Below the pieces are notes generated by a model, which worked only from the letters and a program-made list of their open reading frames with translations, made no database searches and had not been told where the DNA came from. 64,000 nt of DNA from a virus (taxonomy: Duplodnaviria > Heunggongvirae > Uroviricota > Caudoviricetes). Position numbers and translations under genes: made by a program. Below are positions 14,199 to 62,342 of the stretch, one piece after another; positions within the stretch are counted from its first letter, which is position 1, and every line of letters begins with the position of its first letter. The stretch is taken from IMG/VR virus record IMGVR_UViG_3300025073_000880; one strand, 5' to 3'.

Positions 14199-15095
14199 CT
14201 ATCCGAGCAAACTTGTAGAACTTGAAGTACTTGAGCTTGTAGAACTTGTGGTACTTGAGCTTGTGCTTGAGCTTGTGCTTGAAGTACTTGAAGATGTAGA
14301 GCTTGTAGAGCTTGAGGTACTTGAAGACGTAGAGCTTGAAGTACTTGAGCTTGTAGAGCTTGAAGTACTTGAAGACGTAGAGCTTGAGGTACTAGAACTT
14401 GTAGAGCTTGAGGTACTTGAAGACGTAGAGCTTGAAGTACTTGAGCTTGTAGAGCTTGAGGTACTAGAACTTGTAGAGCTTGAGGTGCTTGAGGTGCTTG
14501 ATAAATACGTATTACTTGGAACAATGATTGATTTTCTAACCTCCCCAAAGTTTAATAGGTTAATATAAAAAGCATCATTTGCTACATTAGAAAAATATAC
14601 AGGGAGTAAAACCTGCTTTGGGAATGTGGTATTATGCTCTGCAACCTTACGTTTATCATCACCATTGCCAATCCAAAATTCAACACGTTCTATTCTTGTC
14701 CGAACCTCAAAAGAAGTTGGTGTATTTGTCCATGTTGCATCCCACGGAACAGTTGTCTGTTCTGGGGTTGCACTATCATCGTTATAAGATCTAACGTAAA
14801 AATTAGTTCCACTGATAAAAAAGTACGCAGCATTCCGATTCCCGAATGCTTTTGAATATAAACCAAAAACTCGAGAATCTCCGCCTGTTGGGGCTGTCGG
14901 CACAGTAAGCTTCATTTCAAAGTTACCGTGCATAAACACCCTGAGGGTACTAATACTGGCAGTGTGTAATCTAATTTTCCCGTCCAAAACTTTCGCATCG
15001 CCACTAAACCTTCTCAATTCTGTTGTGTCGAATCCTGAAAGATATGGGTCATAGAGAAAGTGATAACGATCACTAACTGTTTTTACGTGTGCCAT
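14199..15095 (-). CDS. Virion or surface protein: N-terminal beta-rich domain plus a long C-terminal (SSST)n Ser/Thr tract.
   Basis: About 100 residues of SSSTSSSTSSS... encoded by the 12-nt tandem repeat at 14215-14515. Confidence 0.45.
   Translation of the reverse strand: MAHVKTVSDRYHFLYDPYLSGFDTTELRRFSGDAKVLDGKIRLHTASISTLRVFMHGNFEMKLTVPTAPTGGDSRVFGLYSKAFGNRNAAYFFISGTNFYVRSYNDDSATPEQTTVPWDATWTNTPTSFEVRTRIERVEFWIGNGDDKRKVAEHNTTFPKQVLLPVYFSNVANDAFYINLLNFGEVRKSIIVPSNTYLSSTSSTSSSTSSSTSSSTSSSTSSSTSSSTSSSTSSSTSSSTSSSTSSSTSSSTSSSTSSSTSSSTSSTSSSTSSTSSSTSSSTTSSTSSSTSSSTSLLG
14215..14515. repeat. Tandem 12/24-nt repeat (agagcttgaagt-like units) encoding poly-Ser/Thr.
   Basis: Visible periodicity. 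All three frames on both strands give low-complexity ORFs. Confidence 0.8.
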
Positions 15096-22746: not shown

Positions 22747-22783
22747 AATGCAAATTATTAAAGTTTTATTACTAAATCTTCTT

Positions 22784-22801
22784 ATATTATAACACAAGTC
22801 C
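22784..22801 (-). promoter_or_regulatory. Conserved promoter-like motif, copy 2.
   Basis: ATATTATAACACAAGTCC on the plus strand, giving an extended -10 on the minus strand. Confidence 0.45.
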
Positions 22802-23628
22802 CACTATATTGGCTAATATTTTGTGTAGTTACCCATAGATTTTGCTTCTGCTTCCTCAAGTGCTAACAAATCTTCGGGTGTCATGTTTTTTCTTTTTACC
22901 AATTCATTTACATAATTAATAAAATCAAACTCACCCTCACGCTTCCCTTGAGTCTTAGACATATCATGGGGATTCTTGTATGAATCTATATACCCCAAAA
23001 GACTTATAAGGTCATAATTTCTCTCTTGAGCAAAACGATTTAACGCATGCCAAAATGGAGTATCACAAATACTGACTAAAAAGTTATCAAACTCATCCTT
23101 TGGCATTGAATAAACATCACTATTTGGTGTAGTCTCCTCAGAACCTTTTAGTGATTCTTGAGTAACCTCACCTGCCACCTTCTTTTTTCTAGGCATAAAT
23201 CTTCATAAGTTATTAATAATTTTTAACGCCACTTTGTCCAGTCTATTGTTTTAAATACCCTATCCCAATGTTTCTTTTCATCTGGAAGCAACTCCCTATT
23301 ATAATCAGTTTTTTCTTTTAATATTTTTTGTGTAGGCTTGAGCGTTGAGTCATATAATGGATTAAGTTTTTGCTCTTTATTTTTTTTCTTAAACAATTTT
23401 GATAATAATGATACTACCCATCCGTTTTTTTTACTAGTCATATAATGATATAATTAAGCTTCGTGTATATAAACTTTATCTAGGTTTTTCCTTTTTAATT
23501 TTTCTAAAGTGTTCTTATCAATATTCTTTTTGTTATATCTACGCTCTTTAATATTTGTATTATACCGATTTCCTGTTATACGAGATAAAATCTCTTGCAT
23601 CCACTTTCTTTTGTTGTTTACCATATAT

Positions 23629-25753: not shown

Positions 25754-27232
25754 CTAATATGAAAATGAAGAAGGAAGGTGTTTTGAATAATCTATCTGCG
25801 TCAACTCTTTATCGTACATTACCTTAAATCCTTGTAACCCTATACCAGCAGCAAAAATACAGTCATCATGATACCCCCTTTGAGATACCATATCACCGTT
25901 ATCGTTATAAACCATTGTGGTCATTTCATCTAAAAGCTCTTTACTGTGAATAATTATCTCTCCATCCCTCAACGCCTTTGCAAGTTCGTCTATAAGAAGT
26001 GGTCGTGTAACCTTATTGGTCTTCCACCCTAACCTATCACTAACAGGCTGTCCCATAGTTTCAAATTTCGATGGACGAAAATAAAGATTAGGATATAGTT
26101 TTTGCCTTAAACATGTGAGTGTAGTAAGTCCATGATTATTAACCTCTACCACCATCAAGGCGTTATTGTATCTACGACCCCACACATCAAGTTTATCAGC
26201 CAACCTATCTGGAGGAACAAGTCCTCTATATAAAGCGACCTCTTCACCCGTTTTCCTGTCCCAAACAATAATAACAGAATAATCACCGTCCTCCATACCT
26301 TCAGAGGTATCAACCCCAAATATGTACAATCCTCCTGGGTCTATTGGTTTATAAATTCTAAAACCATCTTCCATTGAAACAATATGCTTTTTGCCGTCAC
26401 CGACTTCAACCACATCGTTCTCTCCCAAAATATTTTTACGAGATTCAAGGATAACGTTTTGGTCAAATACTGGACGCCCTGACGACATGAATTGCAACAA
26501 GTATTCACGAGCAAACTTCTTTGGATCGTTAAGGCGTCTCCTAATCAAGTTTATTTCGTCATCAGTATATCCCCAGTGATAACCATATGACTTTTTAATA
26601 TAACCATTATTATCATCCATCCACATTCTATGGTACCTATCTCCAATTTGATTTGGCGTACTTTCAATAACAATCTTTCCGTCTATGGGGACAGAAGCCT
26701 CTAAAATACTCATTTTTTCATCTGCCTTATCCCAGAAAGACAACTCCGTAACCAAAACATTGTGTAAAGTATAGCCCCGTCCTACATATTCCGTTGATGG
26801 CAACACAATTATCTTAGAATCCATCGCAGGGAAACTCATTTCATATTTTGAATTATATTCAATTGTAGGCCTAAGCTCTTCTGGTGTTGTGCGGTGAAAT
26901 GTCTTAACCTTATCCAAAAGCTCTGTCACAAGCTGACTGTTATATCCAATAATAGCCGTATTGGTTCCTGGGTTCATAATTGTGTTGTGATAAAAATAGC
27001 CCACCATAGCAGAAGAAAACCCCAATTGTCTGGCCTTCAAGATCATAACCCTATTATTCACCCGCAATGTATTAAAAAGATCCTTTTGGCATTCTTTAAG
27101 CACAAATGGCAATAGGCTTCCGGGCTTCTTTCCTTTTATCTTACAAAAATTTTCAAGATAAAACTTTGGGTCTCTTAAAAGTTTTAATTGTAAATCGTTA
27201 TTCTTCATATAACTTTCTTCCAGCATCATCAT
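25754..27232 (-). CDS. terL: Terminase large subunit.
   Basis: Walker-A variant VMILKARQLGFSSAM (Terminase_6-type KxRQxGxS). 492 aa, with a C-terminal nuclease-like acidic region. Confidence 0.75.
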   Translation of the reverse strand: MMMLEESYMKNNDLQLKLLRDPKFYLENFCKIKGKKPGSLLPFVLKECQKDLFNTLRVNNRVMILKARQLGFSSAMVGYFYHNTIMNPGTNTAIIGYNSQLVTELLDKVKTFHRTTPEELRPTIEYNSKYEMSFPAMDSKIIVLPSTEYVGRGYTLHNVLVTELSFWDKADEKMSILEASVPIDGKIVIESTPNQIGDRYHRMWMDDNNGYIKKSYGYHWGYTDDEINLIRRRLNDPKKFAREYLLQFMSSGRPVFDQNVILESRKNILGENDVVEVGDGKKHIVSMEDGFRIYKPIDPGGLYIFGVDTSEGMEDGDYSVIIVWDRKTGEEVALYRGLVPPDRLADKLDVWGRRYNNALMVVEVNNHGLTTLTCLRQKLYPNLYFRPSKFETMGQPVSDRLGWKTNKVTRPLLIDELAKALRDGEIIIHSKELLDEMTTMVYNDNGDMVSQRGYHDDCIFAAGIGLQGFKVMYDKELTQIDYSKHLPSSFSY

Positions 27233-27770: not shown

Positions 27771-28938
27771 ACAGGTATGATTCTAAATTTTTTACATAAT
27801 GGGCTGAAAAGTTATATGGGAATTTATAAACATACTTTTCACCATGTTCTTCATTATAACAGCTAATATAGTTTATGACATAATCAAGAAACTTTACATA
27901 GCTCATTTTTTGTTTTTCACCCTCAGCTAAAAGCTCTAGCCTCTCATTCATGCGGTGAACAAAATATAAACACTCAAAATTCATATATTTATAGGGGTAT
28001 TCATAAGTATATTCAAATGGACTGTGGATATCGAAATCAGGAAAAAAATCATAAATATATGTAGTTAGCTTAAACAAAGAACTGTTCCCACCAAAAAAAA
28101 ATTTAGTGTCGTGATTGATGACATTTTTCATCATGGTAGAAAACGCTCCATCAACATTAGTCCCATTTTTATTCCCCCGCAATCTTCTCCTGCCTTTATA
28201 GCAAAACATAGAAAACAGCCAATAAATTTTTATCAAATGCTGGAAAGCTTCATTTTCAAAGGACCCAAACAACTTTTTCAACTCCAAAAAATATGTCCCT
28301 CTATCGTAAGCATTGCCAAATACTGTGATGTCATTTATATCAAAATTCTTTGGTTTTGGATTTGAAAATACATATTCATATTCACGTTTATAATGCTTCA
28401 TATTTTAAGATAATGCTCTTATTTTATCCAAATATCCTTTGTCTTGCAGAATCAAACTCATTTCCCATTCTATTCTTAATACTTGGCTCAACACCAACCC
28501 CCTCTGCAACGCCATCTGTGGCACCAATATCTGAAGTTTTAATCTCCGCACTACCGTCAGGGTCTAAAACTTCAAACAACCTTTCAAATAAAGTTACCAA
28601 ATCTGGGTCTCTTTCTTCTAATTTCTGCATAAATGATGAAATAGAATTCATATCGCTAGGGTCGACTCCCGATTCCTGTAATACTGCGTAAAAGCTTTTA
28701 AGCAACTCTATCTTTAGCTTTTTAAGCTTTTGTTCTTTCATCAAACCCTCAGTATTAAGCATTCTGTCTTTATTTTTTATTCGTTCAAGCTTAGTCAATA
28801 GCGGAGCAGTGCTAACCATTTCTTCTTGTCCATCACCATTATTTGGTATAATGTCAGGTTTTAATGCCATTTTTCTCTTAATATCATTTTTTTGAGGCAT
28901 AAATTATTTTTTTCTTATTATTTTCAAGATGATTTGTT

Positions 28939-28957
28939 TATATTATAACACAAGTCC
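28939..28957 (-). promoter_or_regulatory. Conserved promoter-like motif, copy 3.
   Basis: About 40 nt upstream of the gene 28424-28900. Confidence 0.45.
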
Positions 28958-29135
28958 CATTGTTTTTCTATAAAAAAAGAACCAGAGCACTAATTCTGAT
29001 TCTTTTATGGGTTTAGTGTAATTAATAACAATGAACATAAGGTTCGTTAAAATGTTGATATAAACACATCTAACAAACCCTTAAATCTATAGGCACTCTA
29101 TTATATGAGTATGCACAATAGGCTGTCCAACAGAT

Positions 29136-30977: not shown

Positions 30978-31053
30978 TGGAGCCCATGGAAGGACTTGAA
31001 CCAACAACCATTTGATTACAGATCAACTACTCTACCAATTGAGCTACACAGGC
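30978..31053 (-). tRNA. tRNA with an encoded CCA. Anticodon probably UGU (Thr), but the anticodon and T arms are non-canonical.
   Basis: Acceptor GCCUGUG/CAUGGGC; D arm GCUC-AAUUGGUA-GAGU; T loop UUCAAGU. The T stem has two U-U mismatches. The anticodon loop UCUGUAA has C33. Confidence 0.45.
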
Positions 31054-31621: not shown

Positions 31622-32632
31622 TTATGCGTCATAGTCTAAAAGATATTTATTAGAAATAGCCTTAAACGATAACCTCCCACCCCTATATCCAGACTCTACC
31701 TTTGACCTAACAACAACACCCTCACGATCAACCTCTGGATTTAGCATGCTCTTGCCATCAGCATATCTTAACATATCATCAACTGTTTTTGGCAAGATAA
31801 AGTTATCATCAATTACAGGCACAACGTCAAGGTTTAATGCTTCACACAATTGAACAAAATCTATAAAATCCAAAAAACACCCTGATTTTATATTATAAGC
31901 ATTAAAGAAAAATACCTTTTGCCCGGATAGTTTTAATGGATTTTTTTGAATACCCTCGCCTACAAGCTCTCCTTGCAAAGCCATGTTGTCAGGAAGCTTA
32001 TCTGGCAGATTAAGCTCTTTGGCTAATCGCCACTGAGTAACGTCACTCTCCTCTAATTCCAAATTACGACTACAAACACCAAATACTCCATCAAATTTAT
32101 AAAATGTAATGGACGATCCGTCTAATTTTTCTGTGACATAGAACCTCGACAAAACACCGCCCATGTTCTGAATCCTCTCTTCATCTGTTTTTGGGATAAA
32201 ATTTGGGAATGACCCTTTTACCTTACCCGATAAATAAGCGGGGATTGGCATTTCATACTTTATCACCCCAAGCAAATCAGACACTTCCAAGCCCTCCACC
32301 ATACCCTCTATACCTACACCCAACAAAGAGATAGGCATTACAAGCCCTTGGCTTATTGTGTCTTTCAATTTTACTGTTTTTAACCGTATACCTTCGACCT
32401 CAACACCATCAACCAACATCTTCTTCGGCTTTGATCCTCTTAACAAAAACTCATACTCAGGCTTTATTGGCAAAAACGAATCAATCTCATAATATAAAAC
32501 TAAATCACCGACATTAAACTCATCTTTTTTAACAATGACCCACCAATCGTTTATCCTAACAGATTCAATGAAATCAGCTTTTGGGATAACCCTTTTTTCT
32601 CGAACCCTTTGTATTGTTACCAATTTTCTCAT
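31622..32632 (-). CDS. ATP-dependent RNA ligase (Rnl2/DraRnl-like nucleotidyltransferase).
   Basis: Motif I TEKLDGSS (KxDG); EGVVVR (motif IV); LSFKAI (motif V). Confidence 0.6.
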   Translation of the reverse strand: MRKLVTIQRVREKRVIPKADFIESVRINDWWVIVKKDEFNVGDLVLYYEIDSFLPIKPEYEFLLRGSKPKKMLVDGVEVEGIRLKTVKLKDTISQGLVMPISLLGVGIEGMVEGLEVSDLLGVIKYEMPIPAYLSGKVKGSFPNFIPKTDEERIQNMGGVLSRFYVTEKLDGSSITFYKFDGVFGVCSRNLELEESDVTQWRLAKELNLPDKLPDNMALQGELVGEGIQKNPLKLSGQKVFFFNAYNIKSGCFLDFIDFVQLCEALNLDVVPVIDDNFILPKTVDDMLRYADGKSMLNPEVDREGVVVRSKVESGYRGGRLSFKAISNKYLLDYDA

Positions 32633-32846: not shown

Positions 32847-33272
32847 TTATTTGTTATTAAACACTTTAAACTCTTCTGAATAATATGTTGTCTTACATTT
32901 TTCACACCTATAACACGCAGTAAAATAATATTTTTTCTTTAATTGTTTTGGTTTAAATATAATTTCTGAATATTTAACATCACCACCACATTTTCTACAA
33001 ACAGACCCATCAACCATTTTTATTCCTGTTGATTTTTTAGATTTAAACTCAACCGCATTACCGCACATCTGACAAGTAGCTATAATCCAACCATCGACAT
33101 ACTGGAAACTCCAATTATTGTCTAAACATTTATCACAATTCCCCATCCCCATATTTATTTCCTCTAATCTACCAGCTATACTTTTCTTGTATTTTGTATC
33201 CTTCAAAAATTGGTAATGTTTGCCTGTCAATCTTACACCTTTAACAAATCTAGTTGTATTACTATTTCTCAT
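32847..33272 (-). CDS. Multi-CxxC zinc-ribbon protein.
   Basis: Four CxxC pairs (CDKC, CQMC, CRKC, CYRCEKC). Confidence 0.4.
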   Translation of the reverse strand: MRNSNTTRFVKGVRLTGKHYQFLKDTKYKKSIAGRLEEINMGMGNCDKCLDNNWSFQYVDGWIIATCQMCGNAVEFKSKKSTGIKMVDGSVCRKCGGDVKYSEIIFKPKQLKKKYYFTACYRCEKCKTTYYSEEFKVFNNK

Positions 33273-33289
33273 ACATAGTTATCATGATT

Positions 33290-35350
33290 ACTATGTTCCT
33301 TACCGCCACCACACCACCACAGCTCTGCCTGCTCTCCCTCTCTCCCTATGAAGCAGTCTATCTATTGCTATATTAGTATTGGTAGACTATCCCTCTCCCA
33401 GAATGCTGTCTGGGTCATTGGGTCTGCTTCGGCGGTCGGTCGGTCGTTTAGCGTCGCTTTCATACCGCTAGAATATTTAAAGGCTATTCTCCATGTATGA
33501 ATATGGTCTTTACCACTCATCTTGGAAGCCCAAATATTTTGAGCCTTTTGATCAACGGTAAAATATCTATATAATATCCATATAAAAAACCACCATTCGT
33601 AGCTTACTGCTTACCTATATACCCAACGACGAGTTTGGTAGCAGGAAAGCCACAAATAGTGGTTCTTTTCGTCGTTGGCATATTTTCCTCTTTCTCTCTA
33701 CACCCATTACAGCATACGCATTTAACTGTGTCAAGACATCCCTAAAAAAAACCCTGTGGATAACTCATAAATATCACCTATTTTACCAACAAATTCCACA
33801 CCCTCTTACCATAAAAATTGCATAAATACACCACCAGTACCCCACCAATAAATAATCCAAATGTAACTAAACAATATACAAGCAATGCAATAACACTATA
33901 CACTACAACATCAATTAAAAATAACATATGTTTATATTCTTAGTTTATATTCTTAACCCTCAACACATTGGTGATATGATTAGTAACTACTACTATCTTA
34001 AACTTATAGATTTTGCGGGCAGTTAATGTCGCAAACATATTGCAATCATCGGCTTTGATGCCCACCAGCTATAAGAGTCCAAGGCATTTATGCAATATGC
34101 CAAGAGTTAAAAATATTACCTTTTATGCAATTTCTTTATCTTAACACACAAAACTTTACTTGTCAATCTAAATAACCATAAAACACCAAAACTGTCAATA
34201 TTACCCAAATCCTAGCCGGATTTTTTTTGACCCCAACTCTTTTTCACCTCTCCACCACCCTACCCAACTGCCCCCCCCCCTACCCCCAACCATCACACCA
34301 AAAGGACAAAACCTAACTAACACTCAACCTCCAGCTTCAATTCTGGGGTTCTACAAGCCCCGTACAGCATCGAAACTATACTTTTAATGATAATGTACCA
34401 CTCAGCCTTTTTAGACCCCTGTTTTGACACTCTTTTTGGATGACCCCTGGCTTTGAGGCCTAGGGCTTAGAACCCAAGCCTCAGGGCTCAAGGCTTAGGG
34501 CTTAGAACCCAAGGCTTAAAGCCCATAACCTGAAACCAAAAGCCAAAAGCTCAAGGCTTAAGGCTGGCAACCAAAAGATTAGTAACCACAAAGCAATGGG
34601 GCAACATAACCAGATAGACATACTCTTTCCTAAAATTTTATCCGCAGAGCGTGAGGGTACCATATATAAGGGGGGGGCACATTTGGGGGAGTCCCCGCCA
34701 AGACACTCCCCCCCCACCCTTCCACCACGCAACCACAAGCCTTCCGCCTTTGGGCTTTAGGCTCGTGAGTTGTGGGGGGGCTTGTAAGTTTTTTAGGTTA
34801 GGGCTTGAGGCTTGGGGCTTGGGGCAAAATACCTGTCGGGGAAAATGATATAGACTTGACTGTAACATTTTTAGTCTTTTGGCTTGTTCTATTAGTTTCA
34901 AGTGTCGGCAAATATACCTTTTACGACTCTTAGCTTTGGGCTGTGGATAAAAAAAACTACTCACTTGACAAGCAGAAAAAAATACTGTATCCTAATAATA
35001 GGAAGGAATGAACTGTACCATTGGCATATAGGCTAATATCTTTACACATTTTTGTCGAAAAAAAGGGACTATGGGTGATTATTCATCCACCTTGTCGGCT
35101 CAATGTGTTAGTAATTGGCTTGTAGAGCTTGGAGGCTCAAGGCTTGGGGGCGGGTAAGATAATAGTTGATTACTGCATCGGCTATTCCCGCCCTTAGCGG
35201 TTGGGCGTTCCATATGCCCTTTCGTCTTATGACGATTGCCCTCCGCCTTAGAGCCTTAAAGATCCAAAAATTATTTAACATTTCGCCATTTTTAGCTTAT
35301 TTTTCAATTTTAGCCAAAAAATGGGGCTTAAAATTGACCCATAAGAGATT
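33290..35350. other. Non-coding hub about 2 kb long where transcription diverges. Contains iteron-like repeats, hairpins and G/C homopolymer tracts. Candidate replication origin or regulatory region.
   Basis: No credible ORF. Minus genes end at its left edge and plus genes start at 35357. Contains an 18-bp direct repeat TAGGGCTTAGAACCCAAG x2 (34461 and 34494), GGCTTGAGGCTTGGGGCTTGGGG, and C10/G8/C8/G7 tracts at 34271, 34670, 34698 and 34774. Confidence 0.5.
34334..34432 (+). repeat. Conserved ~100-nt intergenic element, copy a.
   Basis: CTTCAATTCTGGGGTTCTACAAGCCCCGTACAGCATCGAAACTATACTTTTAATGATAATGTACCACTCAGC...TTTTGACAC. The two other copies are at 37949 and 62343 (reverse orientation). Confidence 0.6.
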
Positions 35351-35838
35351 AAAAAGGTGAAAGCGATAAAACATATGGCTAAAAAAACATTATTACAATT
35401 CGAGGCAGTGAAAGAGGGGGAGGCTCTTCTCCTCAAGGTCAAGGCAACAAAAAAATTGGAGGAGTTATTTAAAAATCTATCCGAGAGTTCAACAGGGCTT
35501 TCTGGTCGTTGGTATAATACCAACAATGAAGGGCTTCAGTTTTATACCAACAATGAAAAAATCAATGAGGCAATGAAGAAGTCAGTATCTTATTTTGACG
35601 AATATTTTTTTGATGATTTCGGGTCTGGGCTGATTGATGGGAGCAGAATAAATGTGGCTATCCTACGAGCTGTAGGGATTAGTGAAGGATTAACAATGCG
35701 GACAACAGAGCTTATCACTCACGATGGATTGAAGAATTATATTGAGAAGTTGGCACAATTTTCTAAGGATTTATACCAAAATTTTTTGAAAAAAGATAAA
35801 ATAAAGGCTTTAGTCACTTTTGAGATTTAAAAAAAAAT

Positions 35839-36540
35839 ATGAGAAACTTTAAAATCGGATTTGAGCTCGAGGGGAAATTTAATCAAAATATATACTATAA
35901 GACCAGAAAGCTAGGAGACTATAAGGGGGACGGATCTGTCACTGTTAGCGATTATCTTGGGAATTCAATCAGAGAAGAAGAATTTGCGAGTTATGCTAAT
36001 TTTGTTAAACCTACACTTGAGTTGTTGCGAACATTCATAATCGGAGAAAATTATATCTACAACAATACTTGTGGACTTCACTTGCATGTGTCCTTGTTTG
36101 ACTATCCATCCAGCATATTACAAAATCTTGCTACTTCGTGGAGTTTTATTTCAAAACTACAGGGAGAGGCTGGGACGATGTGTGAATGTGTTCAAGCGAG
36201 ATTAAAGGGTAATCGTTTTTGTCAAAAGTATAATAAGGCAAATTTTATGTACGACGCCGAAAACGGAACAAAATACCGCTTTTGTCGTTTTCATCCTATC
36301 GGGACGCTTGAGTTTCGGTTTTTAGCTCCTTGCGAGCATAGGGAGGACAACATTATGAAGTTATTGACATTGATTGATGATTATTTATTTTTAGCTAAAA
36401 AAATATACTCGCAAGAAGTTGAGGATGAAAAAACAAAAAATCAGAAAATTATTATTAATTTTGAAAAAATAGAAAATGCAGAAACAATAAACATTGTGAT
36501 AGATAATTGTCAGCCTTCTAGCATTAATCTTAATCTTTAA
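35839..36540 (+). CDS. Amidoligase-like (glutamine-synthetase-like amidoligase_2-type) protein. Tentative.
   Basis: N-terminal FELEGKF acidic motif and CGLHLHVSL His motif. Directly upstream of a class-II GATase-like gene. Confidence 0.35.
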   Translation: MRNFKIGFELEGKFNQNIYYKTRKLGDYKGDGSVTVSDYLGNSIREEEFASYANFVKPTLELLRTFIIGENYIYNNTCGLHLHVSLFDYPSSILQNLATSWSFISKLQGEAGTMCECVQARLKGNRFCQKYNKANFMYDAENGTKYRFCRFHPIGTLEFRFLAPCEHREDNIMKLLTLIDDYLFLAKKIYSQEVEDEKTKNQKIIINFEKIENAETINIVIDNCQPSSINLNL

Positions 36541-37323: not shown

Positions 37324-37948
37324 ATTTTACGATTTGGTGTTTGGGGGAATTACATAAATCCCCTTTGCATTAAATCATAAAAATAAAACTATGTATTATT
37401 GTGATTATTCATTGATATACTGTATGCCCGATGACAATACACAGGAGCTTTGTGTCAATATCTACAATCAACGAATTATTCGTGTTTATTCTGAAACTAT
37501 TGTAGGTGTATGGGATGATAGTGAAGATGTAGAAAAAACAATTAAAGAAGTCGCAGAAAGTAAAAATTTTGTGCCGTTTCATTTAATTCACGAAGATTAA
37601 AAATTTATGAAATTATTAACAAAAAAAATTATTGAGCGTTTTCGAGAAGTTGGTAGTCAAGAAAACAATCCTAATCCGATTGTTATAGCTAAATTTTTCA
37701 ATCCAGTTGGAGCTGGGACTTGGTATGCGACAGAATACAACGAGACAGAGCAAGTTTTTTTTGGCTATGTATCAATTTTTGGTGGGGGATGTGATGAGTG
37801 GGGTTATTTTAGCCTTGCAGAATTGGAGGAGTTGAAATTGCCTTTTGGTTTTGGGATAGAGAGGGATATTTTTGGAAAAGAAAAAAGGATAAAGGAATAT
37901 TTAAAATAAATAGAATGATGTTTTATAGTTTTAATGTTTAGCTTATAT

Positions 37949-38045
37949 CTTCAATTCTGAAGCTCTACAAGCCTCGTACAGCGATAAAATTACATTTTTA
38001 ATGGTATACCATTACTTTAAATTTTAAAGGGTCTGTTTGGCTTAA
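37949..38045 (+). repeat. Conserved ~100-nt intergenic element, copy b.
   Basis: CTTCAATTCTGAAGCTCTACAAGCCTCGTACAGCGATAAAATTACATTTTTAATGGTATACC... Confidence 0.6.
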
Positions 38046-38740: not shown

Positions 38741-38800
38741 TAGGTAAGTTTTCCACCTTTAGCCATTAGCCTTGAGCCTTTGGGGTTTGAGGCTATAAGC
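38741..38800 (+). repeat. Intergenic repeat (TTCCACCTTTAGCCATTAGCCTTGAGCC...GAGGCT), copy 1 of 2.
   Basis: Second copy at 39401-39470. Each follows the stop of a plus-strand gene. Confidence 0.5.
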
Positions 38801-39400
38801 AAAAGGTTGATAATTTAATATCTGAATACCTTAAATTTGAGAAAATTTTAATTAAATAACTATAAAAATGTATGAAAACTTACATAAGAACAACGACAAA
38901 TGGCAAGATTATAGTTGGATTGGTAAAAGATTTCAAAACAGTAGCAAGATTTGAGGATTATTATATTAGTGATTACTTGTCTGAAAAAATAAAGCGAGGC
39001 GAATTTGAAATAATAGGACAGCCAAAAGGCAATAAATATACAAGAGTAAAATTTACAAACTAATTTAAAAAATGTATGAATACTACAAAAGAACAATTAA
39101 ACAAAATAAAAAGTTGGTGTAAAGATTTTGAGAAATCAAATTTTGATATGCTTAACAATATAGATGAAAACACTTTTGAGGGATCAGCGTATATTATCTT
39201 TAAAAAAATTCTAAAAGATTCTAATAAATAAACAATAATAATTTAATATGACTTTTTATCAAAAATACAAATGGTCATGGCTAACATTAAAACAAAAAGA
39301 TTTACGCTTAAAGTGTGGACGGATAATGGGGGAAATACTTTACTGGCTTATTATAACAGCCGAAATAGCCATTATACTTTTAGTGTTTATTGGGTTGACT

Positions 39401-39470
39401 AAATAAGCCTTTCCACCTTTGGCAGTTAGCCTTGAGCCGTAAAGATTCGAGGCTTTGAGCGAAAGGTCGA
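39401..39470 (+). repeat. Intergenic repeat, copy 2.
   Basis: TTCCACCTTTGGCAGTTAGCCTTGAGCC...GAGGCTTTGAGCGAAAGGTCGAG. Confidence 0.5.
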
Positions 39471-40998
39471 GAATATAAATAACTAAAATAACTAATAACT
39501 ATAAAAAATATGGGGAGATATTATTCTGGGGATATCGAGGGCAAATTTTGGTTTGCAGTCCAAGATTCAAATGACGCTGATTTTTTTGGTGTAGTAGGTG
39601 ATGAAATCACAAACCTTCAGTATTACTTTTCAACCAAAGACTTAAAAAAGGTCAATGCAGGTGTCAAAAAATGCTTAACTGAATTGAGCAAGTATAAAAA
39701 ACAAATGGATGTTTTCTTTGAAAAAAACAATGTTTACAATGACGAGATGTTAAGAAAGTTTTTAGATATTACTATGGTGAAAACAAAAAAACTTTTAGTT
39801 TGGTATGCTAGGTTGGGACTTGGAGAAAAAATCCAAAAATGCCTTAAAGAAAGTGGGAGCTGTTGTTTCGATGCAGAAATTTAATTATTAACTTATATTT
39901 GTATGGGACAGTATTATCATCCAATAAACTTGGATAAAAAAGAACACCTTAGTAGCCACGATTACGACAATGGCCTGAAGCTAATGGAGCATTCTTGGGT
40001 AGGAAACGATTTTGTAGAAACAGTTTGTGAGCTATTAAAGCCAAATGGTAGTTGGTATAAAAATAGAATAGTTTGGCTTGGTGATTATGCAGATGACGAA
40101 AAGTTAAACAAGGCTTTAGATGACGGTAAAAGTAAAAAGATTGAACCGGAGAAAAAAGATAGCAATTCTGTTTATAAGTTTTTAGTAAATCACTCTAAAA
40201 AATACTTTGTAGATTTTTCGGAAATCCCAGAAGGGGATAGTGGTTGGAAAATTAACCCATTACCACTCTTAACCTGTGAGGGCAATGGCAGGGGTGGAGG
40301 TGACTTCCATGTCGAAAACAGTTTGGTCGGCTTATGGGCTAGGGATATTATACCGGTAGAGGATAAAAAGCCCAAGGGGTATGAAAAAATAGTATTTGAT
40401 TTGGTAGAATAATAAATTATTAAACTAAACATTTCATATGAAGATTACACAAAAAGAGTTGAAGAAATTCACGGCGGAAGATATGCCCGCCGAGTTTTCC
40501 ATGAACGAAGCTAGAAAGATAATTGAGGACATGAGCAATTTGGGGACTGTATCATTTAATTTTTATTGCCTTGAGGATAGTTCAGCCGACTCCTACTGGA
40601 ATGAGGCGAGGGTTGAAGTCAACAAGGACAACAGGTTTTATGAGGTTGTTTATAATTGTGATGTTAAGCTGTGGGATGATATGGCTCAAAAAGATTTGAT
40701 TGATATTATCAACGACCTTGAAGATGACGCCCAAAAAACCCTTTGTGCTTTTGGTGGTCGGGTTTATATTAAAGATTAAAAATAAAAATGATAGGACATA
40801 GTGGTGAAACATATATATGTTTCACTGCTATGTTTACTAGAATAAAGATTAACAAAAAACTATGGAAAATCAAAAAAATATTTGGCGAAAATTTAAACAA
40901 TGGTTTGTAAATCAAAATAGTTTGATATTTTCTTTGTGTATTTTTATTATGTTTGGTTTATTTATTAAGTTTGTAATAATTAAAATAATTAGAACCAT

Positions 40999-43964: not shown

Positions 43965-44000
43965 ATTTTTATAATTGTAAAGTAATTGTCAAGTAATCGC

Positions 44001-44232
44001 CAGCAGGCTGAAGGTGAGTGGGTAATGGACTTCCACCATTACACGATACCCTAGTCGGGGGCATCTCGGTGTGGTGTTCCCACTATCCGACTTTACGGTT
44101 TCACCTAGCGTCTATCTTCCGCCACCACTCACCACCGCAGTCTGCCCGATTGAGCGAGGAGGCAAAGCCCCCACTGCGGTTTTCAGCCTCTGTATGTCTA
44201 ACAGAGCTGGATTACTCCAGCCTGCTGGGGGC
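44001..44232. ncRNA. GC-rich structured RNA candidate, family unknown. It could be the 5' leader of the radical SAM gene if transcribed on the minus strand.
   Basis: GC much higher than its surroundings. A 10-bp closing helix CAGCAGGCUG/CAGCCUGCUG encloses several nested perfect hairpins (GUAAUGG/CCAUUAC, AGUCGG/CCGACU, CCGCAGU/ACUGCGG, CUCUGU/ACAGAG). No credible ORF. Confidence 0.4.
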
Positions 44233-45453
44233 TAGTTACTACCAAGAATATTTACCACAGTTGCAGGTAGCTTGACTGCTATCAACCAAACAAAATCCAC
44301 AATGTTCACAATATGGAACATCATTTTGCTTTGGTTCTTCAATGCTTGTGTTGTATATAGTTTTTTCTTCGCTCATATTAGATGACAGATGACAGTGGAA
44401 ATATACTTTTTTCTCTGTTCGTTGCCTCACATAATTCATCTGGTGGGTTTTCATTTCTTTTTTTTGTATGAGGAGTTTCTTTCCCACACAACCGACACCT
44501 ATACCAATAATAAGTTTCTGACAATGTAGAATTTATATCGCTCATTAACGGAAAATAATCATGTTTCATATATAGTTTAAAGTAACATTTTTTGTCTTAA
44601 TCTATCTTCCCCAATTTCACAATAATTTTTATTTATTTCACATCCTATGAAATTCCTGCTTAAATCAATTACGGCATAGCTGGGATTATTTTATCTTCAA
44701 CGCTAATCTCACCGAACAGATTTTTGTTTTTATTCAATTTCATTTTATTTTTCTCGCTTAATCTGGAGGCTTGGATGGTATTGGGGCGTGAGATAGTGTC
44801 CCCATTTAGTTTTACATCTACGCAATTTTTTTTAAACACCCCCAAGCCCCCCAGACTAGGCGAGAATGTCGCCTAGAGAGGTTATTTGGTTATACCTTTA
44901 ACTGCCCACATTACTGATTCTTCTAGCTTTGTTTTTGCTAATGCAATTTCACGACCGTTTTTCTCATTCAAGCCAACATGAATTGCCAGCAATAATTGAT
45001 AAGCTACATCTTTGATGTTATCAATTCTCATCGCATCTTCCTCTGAAAGGTTATGATATATAGGATGAAAAATGTTTTCTAGTTCTCCCGTACATTTATT
45101 TTATTATTTATTTTGTCATTAAGACCCATTTAACATCAGGAAACGCTTTAACAAAGCTTTTCTTTGCCTTTGCATTATTACTCTTCGCCTTTTTTATTAT
45201 TTCTTTTTCAGTTATTTCTTTAAGTGGTATTATGAACAAACTAATGATAAACGGATTCCCAGCCCACACGTGCCAACTTCTTTGTGTTTTATCAAGCCAG
45301 ACATAATCAGATATTTGTTTCCCATTCGCTTTACCCATATTTTTAATTCTTAGAGCCACCCTGCCCCCGTATTAGAGACCTCACGCTTGTCGTTCACCGT
45401 GGGTGAAGGAGGTGCAACAATATACAAAGGGCAGAGTGGCTTTATGAAAAAAA

Positions 45454-46935
45454 CTAAATAATAATTCGTTTATACCTGTCGGAGTTAATCGTATTCATCA
45501 TAACCTCATAAGGCGTTTTATTCTCAACTGCCATCTTGAATATTACAGGAGAAAAGCCGGAAACCATTGACACGCCTCGCTCACTCTCTTTGACTGGCAA
45601 ATTCTCTCCGCTTGCATTTACATTCCAAAACACTAGATTCGGTCTGACATACCCCAGCTGGGAATACTTTTGTTCAATAACCTCAAAATTAGTTTGGTCG
45701 CCATAAGTAGCCTGGTCAAACTCCATGTCTGAAATAATGTAAATCGTGTCTGGCATTTCATCTTCCGGCGTGCTGTTCTGAACGGCAGTTGTTAAAATTA
45801 AATCAAACACAGCCTGAACGTTGGTGTTAGCTACGTCCCCAAGCTGAATGCTATTCATTTTATCCCTCAAATTTGCACCTTGAACCTTATGTAATTTCGG
45901 CTGTCCTGAAAATGAAATAAAGTAATTCTGGAATTGTCCTTTATTTCTCTCAGCAAAATATAGTGCCAACGAAACAGATACAGATATTGGGACGCCAGTC
46001 ATCGATCCTGATGTGTCAGCTACTACTAAGGCATTTTTCCCTTGTGTATAATCAGGTAGCTGATTCCATAAGGCTTCAAGCGTTTTAGAATAATCCGCCC
46101 AAACGGAATTGTATATTTGATATGGATATAATGTCCCTGCATTTATCTTCACCTCACCTTTTTCTGCCTTTTCAATAAACTTTTCATACCTCTTCTCATC
46201 GTGTTTCTTAAAGACATTTTTATAAATTCTTGACGCTTGGCTTGGAACAACAGAATAATTTATATCCGGCCACTTTTTAGCTGACATCTTTTCTTCAACT
46301 GTCGCTATTTTTTTTCTAATAGACCTGATAAGTTTTCTATAAGCCATTTCATCTATCCCTAACCCATTAGCCATAAATCTTGCTTTTTTTCTGGTATTAA
46401 GGCTTGAAGCGTTAATGGTTGGAAGCCATTTAGCCAGCAGGGACGGTTTATCCTCCTTTTGGTCTTTTTCCAGTTGGCTTTTAATCAACAAGAAACATTT
46501 TTTATTATCAAAAAATAAATCATCAAAGCGACCATACTCTTGGACAAAATCTACAATCTTTTCAAATATAGAAGGTTCATTTTCACCTAACCATTGCAGA
46601 CAAACCCTAAATAAGGCTCGCTCACCCTGGCCTCCCCTTATATCTCTAAGATAAAACAAAACCTTAATTGCCTTTTCTCTATCTTCCGAAAACGCTCGTT
46701 TGAATAAATCAAGGGCTTTTTTAGGCTCACCCCTCATCGCTCCAGCCTGAGCATAAAAATCTAAAAGAGCCGACTGCGTTCGAGTAAAAGTCTTTGCCTC
46801 GTTTTTTGTTCTCCCATAGGACGTGTTTACATACATCCCATTGATTAAAGAATTCCCACTTGATTTCTTTGCTCCTTCAGGAGCTTTCATCTCATTGATG
46901 TTTTTCATATTTTTGAAACAAGACGCTTTTAACAC
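45454..46935 (-). CDS. rsr: Ro60/Rsr ortholog (TROVE domain plus vWA domain).
   Basis: YLRDIRGGQGER TROVE region and VVADTSGSMTG MIDAS motif. 493 aa. Confidence 0.65.
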   Translation of the reverse strand: MLKASCFKNMKNINEMKAPEGAKKSSGNSLINGMYVNTSYGRTKNEAKTFTRTQSALLDFYAQAGAMRGEPKKALDLFKRAFSEDREKAIKVLFYLRDIRGGQGERALFRVCLQWLGENEPSIFEKIVDFVQEYGRFDDLFFDNKKCFLLIKSQLEKDQKEDKPSLLAKWLPTINASSLNTRKKARFMANGLGIDEMAYRKLIRSIRKKIATVEEKMSAKKWPDINYSVVPSQASRIYKNVFKKHDEKRYEKFIEKAEKGEVKINAGTLYPYQIYNSVWADYSKTLEALWNQLPDYTQGKNALVVADTSGSMTGVPISVSVSLALYFAERNKGQFQNYFISFSGQPKLHKVQGANLRDKMNSIQLGDVANTNVQAVFDLILTTAVQNSTPEDEMPDTIYIISDMEFDQATYGDQTNFEVIEQKYSQLGYVRPNLVFWNVNASGENLPVKESERGVSMVSGFSPVIFKMAVENKTPYEVMMNTINSDRYKRIII

Positions 46936-47296: not shown

Positions 47297-49441
47297 TTAA
47301 CCCTTGATTACCGCTAATGGATTTAATTCCACAAGTATTTCAACCAAATCTGCCTGGTTTTGCATAACTTCATCTATTGGCTTATATGCGCCAGGGGCTT
47401 CCTCCAAATCATCTTTGTTCCTCATCCCGTGAATTATCCCTTTGTCATCCATTATTTTCTTTTGTTCATCAAAGTCTAACTGTTCACACGCCGCCTTTCG
47501 CCCTAGCCTTCTCCCTGCTCCATGTGAACATGATTCAAACGATTCTTTATTTCCAAGACCTTTGACGATATATGACTTTGTTCCCATTGAACCAGGAATT
47601 ATTCCGATTGTTCCTTCTCTTGCTAAGGTCGCACCCTTTCTGTGAACCCAGACGTTCTGTCCAAAATGATTTTCTTGTGTGGCGTAATTATGAGCAATGT
47701 TAATAAGTCCACTATTGTCGCCATTTTCATTTTTAACTATAAAATTAGTTATTTCAAAAGCAGTCTTGTAATCCATCTCCCTTAAAAAACAGCCAACAAT
47801 TCTATCCATCATCAATTTTCTATTTGCCAAGGCGAACTCTACACAATACTGCATTTCTCCGATATATGCCTGCCCCTCATCACTATCAACTGGTAAAAAT
47901 GCCAGCTGCCATTCTTTCGGGACTGAACTGTGCCATTTATCGTTTAATTCAACAGCTAATTTGTTGTAATAGTCAGCCACCTGCTTGCCTAGGTTTCGGC
48001 TACCACTATGTATCATTATCCAGATATGCCCATCAGATCCTTTTTGTATTTCAATAAAGTGGTTACCACCGCCAAGAGTTCCTATTTGTTTTAGAGCAGA
48101 GTTATATTGCTCTTTGATTATTGGTTTCCCAACATCATAGTTTGTGGGCATTAAATCCTCGTTTTGTTTTTCTTTATGATGATTAAATCCAACTGGTATT
48201 TGCTTTCTTGTCTCTCCCATTATTTTTTTTATGGTTTCAGTCTCAATTTCAGTTAGAGATGTTTTGACCGCACACATTCCGCAGTTCCCTGTAATAAATA
48301 TTTTATTGTTTCTTCTGGCGATAAAATAACCAGTCTCAACTACAAAACAATACTTCTTTCCATCTTTTATCTTTATTTTTTTAGGTTTACTAAATCCAAC
48401 ATAATTATTTTGCGTTTGATATACATGATACCAATCTTTCCAGTTCTTTTGTTTACTCCTAATAATACCTATACCCGCCCTTATCCCATTTAGGGCACAT
48501 ATATATTGGATAGCATCTGCGTTTATTTTATTTGTCGTAGCATATGTTTTGTGATGTCTTTTTTTGTCTATTGAGCCGTCCCAATATAAATATTCATCAA
48601 AAACAACCTTTGCCTGATTTTGGTTACAGTTATACAAATCGGTTAAATCTTTATCGCAAACCCAATCTACTTTAAAACTGATTGATTCTGTCCCATCTTT
48701 ATGAAAATATTCTTTAAAAAAAACATTAGACTTTTTTAATAAAAATTTACATCTCTCTATCTTTCTTCTTTTCTTGAAGTGCATTTCAATAGTGGTATGC
48801 TTGTTTGATTTATTTCTTATATGTCCATCAGCCGACGCCATAACTCTAATAGCTAGTTGCTCATCAGATAATTTTATGCCAGATTCACGCGTAGGGAAAG
48901 TAGTTCTAATGGAATAATAATCTTGTTTTTTACATTTCAACAACATTTCTCTAAAATCCTTGCAAAAATAAGTATAATCATTTTTCTTCCTGCCATAGCC
49001 TTTATAAACCAACATTCTATGTTCATCGCTTAAAACATGGTCTAATCCATATTTATTTTTATATTCAGTAAAATTTTCACAAGGCTTAACGATATATAAT
49101 AACGGTTTACTGAAAAAAGATGTTTCTTTATAATTATCCCAAACTAAAACGTCTTCGTTGTTATATTTATCAATAGTTATCCATCCGTTTTTAGTTAAAA
49201 CTTCGGTTTCTTTATCCACTGCCCCGATATCTACACCCACAGCGTTTGGAATTATTACGCCTTTGGTCGCCAATACACCACCGATAGGCATACCGTAACC
49301 AACATGGCTGTCAGGCATGATAGCGATGTGTTTAAATGCAAATGGAAGATTCGCAAGATTCTTGGCTTGTGCTAATGCTTCATCCTCAATGTCCTTGAGC
49401 CACATCTTTATTGGTATTTTTTCGGTTGCAACAACTTCCAT
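47297..49441 (-). CDS. rtcB: RtcB RNA 3'-phosphate ligase interrupted by an intein.
   Basis: IMPDSHVGYG, GGGNHFIEIQ and SCSHGAGRR motifs. About 313 aa are inserted between VGVDIG and CGMCAV. Confidence 0.8.
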   Translation of the reverse strand: MEVVATEKIPIKMWLKDIEDEALAQAKNLANLPFAFKHIAIMPDSHVGYGMPIGGVLATKGVIIPNAVGVDIGAVDKETEVLTKNGWITIDKYNNEDVLVWDNYKETSFFSKPLLYIVKPCENFTEYKNKYGLDHVLSDEHRMLVYKGYGRKKNDYTYFCKDFREMLLKCKKQDYYSIRTTFPTRESGIKLSDEQLAIRVMASADGHIRNKSNKHTTIEMHFKKRRKIERCKFLLKKSNVFFKEYFHKDGTESISFKVDWVCDKDLTDLYNCNQNQAKVVFDEYLYWDGSIDKKRHHKTYATTNKINADAIQYICALNGIRAGIGIIRSKQKNWKDWYHVYQTQNNYVGFSKPKKIKIKDGKKYCFVVETGYFIARRNNKIFITGNCGMCAVKTSLTEIETETIKKIMGETRKQIPVGFNHHKEKQNEDLMPTNYDVGKPIIKEQYNSALKQIGTLGGGNHFIEIQKGSDGHIWIMIHSGSRNLGKQVADYYNKLAVELNDKWHSSVPKEWQLAFLPVDSDEGQAYIGEMQYCVEFALANRKLMMDRIVGCFLREMDYKTAFEITNFIVKNENGDNSGLINIAHNYATQENHFGQNVWVHRKGATLAREGTIGIIPGSMGTKSYIVKGLGNKESFESCSHGAGRRLGRKAACEQLDFDEQKKIMDDKGIIHGMRNKDDLEEAPGAYKPIDEVMQNQADLVEILVELNPLAVIKG
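48284..49222 (-). mobile_element. Intein (about aa 74-386 of RtcB) with a LAGLIDADG endonuclease domain.
   Basis: Begins AVDKETEVLTKNGWITI (block A-like, Ala1). Ends ...KIFITGN followed by Cys+1. Internal LAIRVMASADGHI and YLYWDGSIDKK motifs. The exteins total ~401 aa, the normal RtcB size. Confidence 0.6.
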
Positions 49442-52618: not shown

Positions 52619-53653
52619 TTAACTCTCAATTTTCATCGAAAGATAATTTTGTAATTTCAGCCCAAACTTCCAACTCATACACTCATCAGCCGTCTTACCT
52701 TTGGCGTATTCTGGGTCAATCCCTGACACATATATCCTGCCTGTTGACGGACAACTATACCGCAGAAAATAGGCATCGGGGAAACTCATAAAATCCTTGA
52801 CTAGCCACAACTCATTTCCTCTGTCTGATTTTTCTACCATTCTACCTTTTAGGGATCTTAGCATCACTTCGCTATCGGCATACTTCAACGCAATCATCCT
52901 CTGTTCCATATTCTTCATTGACATTATTTCTTCACCCGATAATTTTTTTTCAACAACCTTATCAAACAAATCTTTCTCAAAACGAACTCCGTGAAGAAAG
53001 TAAAACTCTTTGCCGCCTTTCCATTTTATTGCCGGTTTTAATTCTGAATGAAATTCATTGTCTTTATCCAATAAAACAAGTGGTGTAGGAACTAGGTATA
53101 ATACACCTTCATACTCAACTCTATACCCAAGCCCATATTCTTTAGCTTGCATTAAAAGCTCACAATGTTCTAAATACTTATAATCATTTTCGTTTGGTAA
53201 ATTTTCTTTGTCTGGATTCTGACAATACTCAAATTCATAAACATACCAATCAAAATCATAATCTATGGCTGACCAGGCTGACCAGGCTGACCCGGCTGAC
53301 CCGGCTGACCCGGCTGACCTGGCTGACCAGGCTGACCCGGCTGACCCGGCTGACCTGGCTGACCCGGCTGACCCGGCTGACCTGGCTGACCAGGCTGACC
53401 CGGCTGACCAGGCTGACCAGGCTGACCTGGCTGACCCGGCTGACCAGGCTGACCCGGCTGCATCTTGAAACTTTTTTACAAAAATATCTACACACCACAT
53501 TATTTTATTTGGTCGTGGAAGATCGAAAATATCATACGTTTTCAAAATACACTCCTCGGCGTTTTTCTTGTCCAATTCAAAATCTTTGCGTTCAACATTT
53601 CGGCACATCCTATCAATTAAATCTTGTGTTTTTTGTGAGTAATTATGTGTCAT
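52619..53653 (-). CDS. Hypothetical protein with an internal (SAWSAGSAR)n repeat.
   Basis: Encoded by about 22 units of the 9-bp repeat GGCTGACCN at 53265-53462. Confidence 0.4.
53265..53462. repeat. Tandem 9-bp repeat GGCTGACC(A/C/T), about 22 copies.
   Basis: Perfect periodicity. GC-rich island in an AT-rich genome. Confidence 0.85.
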
Positions 53654-62234: not shown

Positions 62235-62306
62235 GTACTCAGAACAGGGTTTGAACCTGCGACCAAAGAGGTATAAACTCTCCGCTCTACCGCTGAGCTA
62301 TCTGAG
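62235..62306 (-). tRNA. tRNA-Ile, anticodon UAU (reads AUA). No CCA is encoded.
   Basis: Acceptor ACUCAGA/UCUGAGU; D arm GCUC-AGCGGUA-GAGC; anticodon arm GAGAG-UUUAUAC-CUCUU; T arm GCAGG-UUCAAAC-CCUGU. Confidence 0.7.
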
Positions 62307-62342
62307 TAAAACCGACATATTATGAAACATTAACCCCCAATG

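Follow-up and report, generated by a model that had tools for sequence, protein, structure and literature searches.

What does a tailed phage keep in two kilobases of DNA that hold no gene? The question is raised by a stretch of 64,000 nucleotides from IMG/VR record IMGVR_UViG_3300025073_000880 (the window hereafter, numbered from its first letter), in which leftward and rightward genes part at a gap near 34 kb that we call the hub. The source is a tailed, uncultured, AT-rich phage (35% G+C content, GC) that is known solely from groundwater metagenomes. A preliminary description, made from the letters of the window, had proposed the hub as a replication origin or major early-promoter region with possibly hypermutable homopolymers, an interpretation that we find partly supported. 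Our own reading is that the hub is a non-coding control region between the two divergent gene blocks of a phage of ~92 kb and that its core is a candidate origin of the kind described for the lactococcal c2 phages. We put the probability of this reading at roughly 0.55.

The limits of the hub are set by the gene starts on its two sides.

33273 to 35374: divergent hub free of open reading frames (ORFs), between the start of a 141-amino-acid (aa) gene on the minus strand (33272) and the ATG of a 151-aa gene on the plus strand (35375)

That no credible ORF exists over ~2 kb was borne out, also under reassignment of any single stop codon. The longest ORF under translation table 11 has 108 aa, starts with GTG and crosses the G/C tracts, and gene calls on identical public contigs place only inconsistent ORFs of 32-50 aa in the hub. 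Recoding was rejected, as reading through TAG, TGA or TAA gave no long hub frame (best 744 nt), and so were pseudogene remnants, the six-frame peptides of the hub having no match in ~180 phage loci. The minus-strand genes had been said to end at the left edge; they start there, with the start codon at 33272. The plus-strand module does begin at the right edge, with the ATG at 35375. Since the minus block starts at the one edge and the plus block at the other, the hub is truly divergent, as had been claimed. Its GC is 41% against 35% for the window, reaching 64% per 100 nt, with G+C-rich islands at 34230-34850 and 35000-35300. On the plus side lie small ORFan 'early' genes, including those for DUF2958 and MerR/helix-turn-helix (HTH) proteins; the minus side is a block holding or leading to the terminase, portal and head genes.

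The position of the hub is kept in other phages. A blastn search with 33000-36000 against 50,697 phage records gave no DNA similarity to deposited phages, and no close relatives of the phage were found. Its terminase belongs to a large, uncultured family (54-67% identity; ~95 loci from groundwater, sediment and lake metagenomes), across which the structural gene order is kept. An equivalent divergent gap was recognised in ~17 related loci, 4.6-7.9 kb upstream of the terminase gene, flanked by small ORFan, DUF2958 or weakly ArdA-like genes and, across the gap, by HU-like, GroES and packaging genes (terminase, portal). The hub sequence is overall unconserved among these relatives and short islands alone align. 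Two other routes to common sequence were abandoned: exact 9-mer enrichment in the non-coding DNA of the relatives returned generic AT-rich words only, and the relatives found through the RNA ligase (80 loci) were non-syntenic and shared no hub sequence.

How, then, is the hub laid out? Its outward-facing signals are three predicted promoters and the DnaA boxes beside them, the box consensus TTATCCACA being taken from the literature (PMC5835720).

34965 to 34993, plus strand: P_R, predicted rightward (early) promoter, cacTTGACAagc, 17-nt spacer, TATCCT
34138 to 34166, minus strand: P_L1, predicted leftward promoter, TTGACA, 17-nt spacer, TAAGAT, with TG before the -10; -35 context ATTGACAAG
33706 to 33734, minus strand: P_L2, predicted leftward promoter, TTGACA (33734-33729), 17-nt spacer, TGTAAT (33711-33706)
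33755 to 33763, minus strand: perfect DnaA box 1, TTATCCACA on the minus strand, 20 nt upstream of the P_L2 -35
34942 to 34950, minus strand: perfect DnaA box 2, TGTGGATAA on the plus strand, 14 nt upstream of the P_R -35
34638 to 34646, plus strand: DnaA-like box with one mismatch, TTATCCGCA, abutting the family-conserved element described below

The window has just two perfect DnaA boxes, contained in the repeated 10-mer CTGTGGATAA; both are in the hub, 1.19 kb apart. Boxes with one mismatch number 31 across the window against 23.4 expected, which is not above chance. To widen the count we used the public assemblies, at least five of which hold contigs identical to the window. Three contigs, of 92.4-93 kb, are nearly full-length and break at differing, arbitrary points (inside the prim-pol gene; at window position -1563), which indicates a circular assembly graph and a genome of ~92.4 kb. 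With contigs identical to the window save for one homopolymer tract, the sequence was extended to 75.5 kb of the ~92.4 kb. This longer sequence has four perfect boxes, and each has an exact TTGACA, directed away from it, 5-38 nt downstream. A random site follows this rule in 2.8% of cases, so that four out of four by chance has a probability of ~6e-7.

33755 with 33734: box-promoter pair in the hub, leftward
34942 with 34965: box-promoter pair in the hub, rightward
64290 with 64251: box-promoter pair outside the hub, leftward
65879 with 65893: box-promoter pair outside the hub, rightward

The four boxes share one absolute orientation and sit at two divergent junctions. Because all of them are promoter-linked, we take them as parts of promoter modules, neither an oriC-like cluster nor exclusive to the hub. 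The module returns in relatives L139, L146 (twice), L156 and L151, for example as TTATCCACA-N9-TTGACT in L139 and TGTGGATAA-N9-TTGACT-N17-TATAAT in L146, and family-wide 7 of 12 perfect boxes fall in the non-coding 21% of the sequence. At box 2, the 20-mer GGGCTGTGGATAAAAAAAAC has a counterpart of 95% identity in the hub of L089, a relative.

The -35 regions also recur. The context TTGACAAG is found at 32778, 34166, 34965, 58184, 64685 and 65893 as well as in the hubs of L089 and L001, which likewise contain the P_R context ACTTGACAAG. The view of the hub as a major early-promoter region thus draws support from the boundary between divergent blocks, its recurrence in ~17 relatives and the recurring sigma70-type -35 context. 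A different motif, GGGACTTGTGTTATAATATAA, of the extended -10 promoter-like form TGnTATAAT, stands three times on the minus strand ahead of minus-strand gene groups (1711-1745, 22778-22812 and 28934-28968) and occurs in relative L123; it may mark a second (middle or late) promoter class.

Between the promoters and the first genes lie long untranslated stretches with strong predicted folds.

35000 to 35374, plus strand: predicted early-operon leader of ~375 nt with three domains, the last pairing with the purine-rich stretch before the start codon
33584 to 33699, minus strand: predicted non-coding RNA (ncRNA) or promoter-proximal terminator of ~115 nt, with a 22-bp stem and a U6 end
33623 to 33632 and 33669 to 33678: arms CCAACGACGA and TCGTCGTTGG of a 10-bp hairpin

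The ~375-nt leader has a minimum free energy (MFE) of -125 kcal/mol (z -7.05), and 0 of 100 shuffles were as stable. For the ~115-nt hairpin RNA the MFE is -45 kcal/mol (z -6.1), with 0 of 200 shuffles as stable. The 10-bp-stem hairpin seen earlier is real, both arms being found, and is enclosed by the 22-bp hairpin and U6 at 33668-33584. From P_L1 to this hairpin a transcript of 558 nt is predicted (34132 to 33575), ORF-free and with a z of -4.07. Between the 22-bp hairpin and the first leftward gene lie ~300 nt, in which no good promoter was found. In relative L124, a promoter, a hairpin and T7 are placed directly ahead of the first gene on the equivalent side.

The space between the outward promoters is of another kind, rich in homopolymers and short repeats.

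34240 to 34300, plus strand: C-rich tract including C10; on the minus strand a G-quadruplex-type motif at 34258-34287
34271 to 34280: C10 homopolymer
34440 to 34570: GGCTT/AAGCC repeat array including the two 18-bp repeats
34461 to 34478 and 34496 to 34513: 18-bp direct repeat TAGGGCTTAGAACCCAAG, 35 bp from start to start
34645 to 34725, minus strand: family-conserved element, G8-AGTGTCTTGG ... C8-TTATATATGG-TACCCTCAC
34670 to 34677: G8 homopolymer
34708 to 34715: C8 homopolymer
34774 to 34780: G7 homopolymer
34774 to 34825, plus strand: G7 and, after it, 3.6 tandem copies of GGGCTT (array 34799-34825)

The part of this core that is shared between phages is the element with the G-run. On the terminase-sense strand, its consensus from 16 aligned relatives reads G5-8-AGTGGTTCG, ~35-45 variable nt, GATACTATAGG, GGAACCCAC and a T-rich block. 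The C8 of the hub is the G-run of the element, and the G8 lies inside it. A profile built without the window has its sole hit in the 64 kb at 34715-34645 on the minus strand, the strand expected, and the same profile adds relatives L141 and L098. The element is present in the equivalent hub of ~17 relatives, in a single copy per locus and always in the divergent gap. Two identities were tried and rejected: as a structured RNA it gave 3 pairs and no covariation in RNAalifold, with 12 single folds at z near 0, and as a promoter that a phage RNA polymerase would use in many copies (T7/SP6-like ACTATAGG core) it fails by being single-copy per locus. From its conservation pattern we read it as a DNA-level site. 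It is prone to form G-quadruplexes and sits in the predicted untranscribed core between the DnaA-box promoters.

The short G-rich tandem repeats beside the element differ from phage to phage: GGGCTT here, GGGTTA and GGGGTAA in L124, GTGTGGC (nine times) in L139, GGCTTGGCTT in L123, and AAGCCCC in L146 (CTTGCTCC four times). All the repeats named earlier for this hub are in place. The 18-bp repeat occurs twice, which 0 of 100 shuffles match, and the GGGCTT-type array is found at 34799-34825; the other hub repeats are degenerate 7-14-bp GGCTT units. The motif GGCTCAAGGCTT matches 11 times where 3.2 are expected, and 7 of these matches are in the hub. The four long G/C tracts are likewise where they were said to be and are unusual: runs of at least 7 number four in the hub against a mean of 0.54 in dinucleotide-preserving shuffles, of which 1 in 1000 reaches four. 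Three of the window's five G-quadruplex-type motifs fall inside the hub. Another G-quadruplex-type motif, GGGAGGGGGGGCGGG, which contains a G7, is found at 62562-62576 in a 694-nt gap that, with copy c of the three-copy element described below and tRNA-Ile, resembles a small hub.

From these parts we suggest the following scheme. The host sigma70 RNA polymerase would initiate rightward at P_R (34965), and the ~375-nt folded leader would precede the expression of the small ORFan 'early' genes. Leftward initiation would take place at P_L1 (34166) and P_L2 (33734), giving ORF-free transcripts that meet the 22-bp hairpin and U-tract at ~33584. As this hairpin precedes the first gene on the left, termination and read-through probably act as the gate to leftward expression. 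Host DnaA, if it binds the boxes at P_R and P_L2 as their match to the consensus suggests, probably tunes phage transcription. The G+C-rich core of ~800 bp (~34167-34964) probably contains no gene and would be a cis-acting DNA locus made of the phage-specific short tandem repeats and the single-copy, family-conserved G-run element. By analogy with the lactococcal c2 type, an origin activated by transcription would most plausibly lie in this core.

Could the hub instead be a cluster of ncRNA genes, its G+C-rich islands and the 115-nt hairpin RNA being structured RNAs, trans-acting or cis-regulatory, and the main product? Islands of high G+C in an otherwise AT-rich genome typically point to structured RNA, and the hub has such islands with GC of up to 64% per 100 nt, fold z-scores of -7.05, -6.1, -4.07 and -3.1, and long-range complementarity between C10 and the G8 region and between the arrays at 34473-34497 and 34799-34823. 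However, Rfam 15 (gathering thresholds, and E up to 5) and ARAGORN found no RNA in the hub, the total for the window being two tRNAs; the best hub hits were microRNA models with ~23 bits against gathering scores of 70-90, and the hubs of the relatives gave tRNAs only. The sole family-conserved part lacks conserved or covarying structure, no predicted promoter reads into the central core between the outward promoters, and 34300-34800 folds alike on both strands, as DNA palindromes would. An ncRNA cluster therefore seems to us unlikely.

How firmly can the control region with a candidate origin be held? Several observations count against it, beginning with the promoters. Sigma70-like hits in the hub number 7 against 6.1 in shuffled sequence, which is not above chance, and the promoters and transcript ends are alike consensus predictions. 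P_L2 was read from the sequence, its placement fitting the box-promoter arrangement at all four perfect boxes; the consensus scan did not flag it, and its -10, TGTAAT, is weak because the A at position 2 is absent. The G-run element has diverged in the window, where the profile scores 9.6 bits (E 0.52 in 2 Mb, ~1e-3 for the hub alone). The gaps of the relatives are mostly 0.3-1.3 kb, the 2.1-kb hub being at the long end, so that much of the 2 kb may be dispensable. The remaining points touch the origin part. The perfect boxes are promoter-linked singletons ~1.2 kb apart, and no cluster of the oriC type within a few hundred bp was found; equal box-promoter modules flank a second divergent junction at ~64.3-65.9 kb; and no Rep-, DnaA- or O-like initiator gene was recognised next to the hub, whose flanking ORFans have no Pfam, PHROG or PDB relative.

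The lactococcal c2 phages, as an analogy, make an origin role plausible, and it is favoured by the early/late boundary, the outward promoters, the predicted non-coding transcripts, the AT-rich 13-mer, the phage-specific repeats and the conserved element; on balance we regard the hub as possibly, rather than probably, the replication origin. GC skew gives no help here. Over the 75.5 kb examined it flips at each coding-strand switch (33-35 kb, 42 kb, 64.5 kb and 72.5 kb), so it reports transcription and not replication and cannot decide the origin. The second junction, at ~64246-65900 (8060-9740 in L184), just to the right of the window and with a 138-nt gap, is an alternative place for the origin. 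It adjoins SbcCD, RuvC and the prim-pol/helicase, and is nearer than the hub to the prim-pol/helicase, RecA and SbcCD.

A stricter version would make the hub a classical theta-type origin, at which DnaA and a phage initiator bind the GGCTT iterons, melt the 13-mer and load the prim-pol/helicase, with transcription secondary. We think this distinctly unlikely. The hub does contain two perfect boxes and one near-perfect box, and an AT-rich tandem repeat that resembles a DNA-unwinding element and, with only two copies, lies 170 nt from the nearest box.

33930 to 33955: perfect tandem of two copies of the AT-rich 13-mer GTTTATATTCTTA, where the hub is richest in AT (25-28% GC)

Hub-specific tandem repeats occur in every relative, as if iterons were co-evolving with an initiator. 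Against this, the boxes belong to promoters, with identical modules beyond the hub, and the replication genes are 23-30 kb distant. Three or more phased repeats of 17-22 bp, as in an iteron array, were not found in the hub: the 18-bp repeat occurs exactly twice, and the pair at 35 bp is not helically phased and lies within hairpin-forming arrays. The missing initiator gene and the uninformative skew noted above count against a theta origin as well.

Within the control region that we favour, the G-run element might go further and be a new replication-initiation or other genome-level cis signal, perhaps acting through an R-loop or G-quadruplex (compare mitochondrial CSBII and ColE1), and host DnaA would then couple both phage transcription and replication to the replication state of the host. 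We offer this as a long shot.

Packaging is a further candidate role, in which the terminase would recognise the G-run element, the repeats would be small-terminase sites, or the hub would hold a genome end. The element does co-occur with the conserved terminase/portal module, the early genes being unconserved; public contig SRR4388699_15015 starts within G8, at window position 34671; and contigs of several relatives end 0.2-1.5 kb from the element. Poor coverage or a structure at the G8...C8 hairpin could explain the contig start in G8, which is no evidence of slippage, and short contigs that hold both the terminase gene and the hub must end near the hub. The three assemblies of ~92.4-93 kb are cut arbitrarily on a circular graph, which points away from a fixed end in the hub. 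The deposited phage terminases closest to this one are T4-type (headful) enzymes, at 30% identity or less, and the element stands 4.6-7.9 kb from the terminase genes (at least 5.5 kb in this phage) rather than adjacent to them. A packaging signal or genome end is thus very unlikely.

Do the homopolymers vary, as the preliminary description had suggested they might? For the hub, hypermutability found no support: all four tracts are identical across five assemblies from different samples, within alignments of up to 20.7 kb at 100% identity, and C8 belongs to a family-conserved motif. The sole difference found among the otherwise identical assemblies is a poly-C at 63986-64000, read as CAC10 in two assemblies, as C12 in one and as CAC plus at least 13 C in the window. 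These data can thus reveal variation, and the hub shows none. This poly-C runs beyond the window end (9961-9972 in L184) and is a poly-G on the strand of the 152-aa gene 63499-63957, ~30 nt upstream of that gene and directly after the hairpin GCCGAAAAATTTCGGC; it is a candidate for either a truly variable tract or an assembly-error hotspot. That the G/C tracts form a contingency locus of slippage-prone switches of promoter strength or spacing is highly improbable, for although homopolymers are enriched in the hub, the G-run ranges from 5 to 8 among relatives and the poly-C at 63986-64000 differs between assemblies, the hub tracts do not differ, none of the four lies in a predicted -35/-10 spacer or a credible ORF, and C8 is the start of the conserved motif.

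Other sequences in the hub are repeated within the phage.

34333 to 34406, plus strand: three-copy element, copy a, in the hub
37946 to 38005, plus strand: three-copy element, further copy
62385 to 62459, minus strand: three-copy element, further copy
near 35117 to 35126, minus strand: partial copy of the three-copy element
33815 to 33827, 34086 to 34096 and 34122 to 34133: three copies of ATTGCATAAAT / TTTATGCAAT, one inverted relative to the other two

Copy a of what had been called a conserved 100-nt element is real, but the core spans ~60-75 nt and not 100. It consists of CTTCAATTCTG-[7-bp stem, CTACA loop]-GTACAGC...TTTTTAATGG, with 74-85% identity between copies, and 0 of 100 shuffles give three copies. 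The element is always oriented along local transcription, copy c lying ~80 nt upstream of tRNA-Ile; compensatory changes in its hairpin are limited, and no promoter within it was convincing. Hairpin-like versions are present in the hubs of L001, L124 and L146, and in L124 and L146 C-rich tracts similar to the one with C10 adjoin them. The ATTGCATAAAT/TTTATGCAAT sites are candidate operators. Two intergenic elements of 69 nt, at 38750-38818 and 39410-39478 inside the plus-strand block, are 78% identical and each carry the GGCTCAAGGCT motif of the hub in reverse; one public contig ends exactly at 38819.

The hub neighbours offer little by name. The 141-aa and 157-aa proteins have no IMG/VR relatives, the 233-aa protein is an ORFan among 5.8 billion proteins, and PDB sequence searches with three flanking proteins gave no match. 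Further away, the window holds genes for a portal, a head protein, GroES, GroEL and RecA besides those listed here.

25754 to 27232, minus strand: large terminase
58436 to 60139: prim-pol/DnaB-type helicase
31622 to 32632: Rnl-type RNA ligase
45454 to 46935: DUF2828/DUF7788 protein
47297 to 49441, minus strand: RtcB
30978 to 31053 and 62235 to 62307: tRNAs

The ligase, the DUF2828/DUF7788 protein and RtcB, with the tRNAs, make up an RNA-repair set. RtcB carries an insertion of ~300 aa with a LAGLIDADG motif; as the RtcB proteins of relatives align as pieces of 73 aa and ~350 aa without it, the insertion is probably an intein. The DUF2828/DUF7788 protein we suspect to be a Ro60/TROVE relative. 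If this kinship is true, a Y-RNA-like partner might sit nearby, for example in the gene-poor stretch 43965-45453, in which Rfam gave no matches. In that stretch a small minus-strand gene (44882-45031) has a precomputed Pfam hit to the Acb2/Tad1 hairpin family of anti-defence sponge proteins, with radical-SAM and HTH genes as neighbours. Repeats in frame were seen twice: the 9-nt unit GGCTGACCN recurs ~21 times at 53267-53460 within ORF 52619-53653, and tandem units of 9, 15 and 24 nt fill 14197-14526 in ORF 14199-15095, where a JGI contig of this phage breaks.

The analysis gives a testable map (promoters, leader RNAs, terminator and cis element) for a phage family of ~90-kb genomes that is widespread in groundwater and sediment and lacks an isolate. 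The strict placement of the boxes, at four of four sites and recurring in relatives, suggests that these phages time their expression by the status of the host replication initiator. The G-run element is a handle for finding the control or origin region in related metagenomic genomes, and the hub cautions that homopolymers can be fixed parts of motifs instead of mutable switches.

How does the hub compare with known systems? The late leader of lambda, pR'-tR' (6S RNA), is a short terminated transcript under Q antitermination. The leftward side of the hub would resemble it in that a promoter leads at once into a short non-coding transcript with a strong terminator, ahead of the operon leading to the structural genes. 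It differs in that no Q-like antiterminator or qut-like site was identified in the phage, and in that the terminator and the head genes are separated by ~300 nt and several non-structural genes. Plasmid and phage P1 oriR origins combine iterons, DnaA boxes and an AT-rich segment. The hub similarly brings short direct repeats, DnaA boxes and an AT-rich segment into one non-coding stretch, but it has two 18-bp copies, no adjacent initiator gene was found, and its boxes are dispersed and tied to promoters.

With lambda pR/pO and with bacterial DnaA-regulated promoters, the phage shares consensus boxes next to promoters of a replication or early region, and boxes in such places imply the host initiator as a transcription factor. 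To our knowledge, a link between host DnaA and phage expression has been documented in detail for lambda only. At the lambda ori, DnaA binds near the promoter beside the origin, and the boxes lie downstream of that promoter, whereas those of the present phage lie 5-38 nt upstream of the -35 (PMC3985674). Work on DnaA-stimulated transcriptional activation of the lambda origin is cited in the reference list of the same paper.

The closest parallel is the origin of Ceduovirus (c2), a non-coding region between divergent early and late blocks that is flanked by early promoters, yields a non-coding transcript needed for initiation and is hypervariable among phages (PMC7150918). The hub shares with it the non-coding divide between early and late genes and, as predicted, the flanking early promoters and a transcript that starts from a promoter and has neither an ORF nor a ribosome-binding site; the position is kept in both while the sequence is highly variable among related phages (PMC7150918). 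It differs in its length of 2.1 kb, in the genome of ~92 kb and in another virion module, and the c2 origin is described without DnaA boxes, G/C homopolymers or a G-run element (PMC7150918). A blastn search against the 50,697 phage records found no homology to the origins of c2, bIL67 or 923, so the hub is an analogue and not a family member. The general type of hub is familiar, and what is new in it are the DnaA-box promoter modules, the family-conserved G-run element and the unusually structured leaders.

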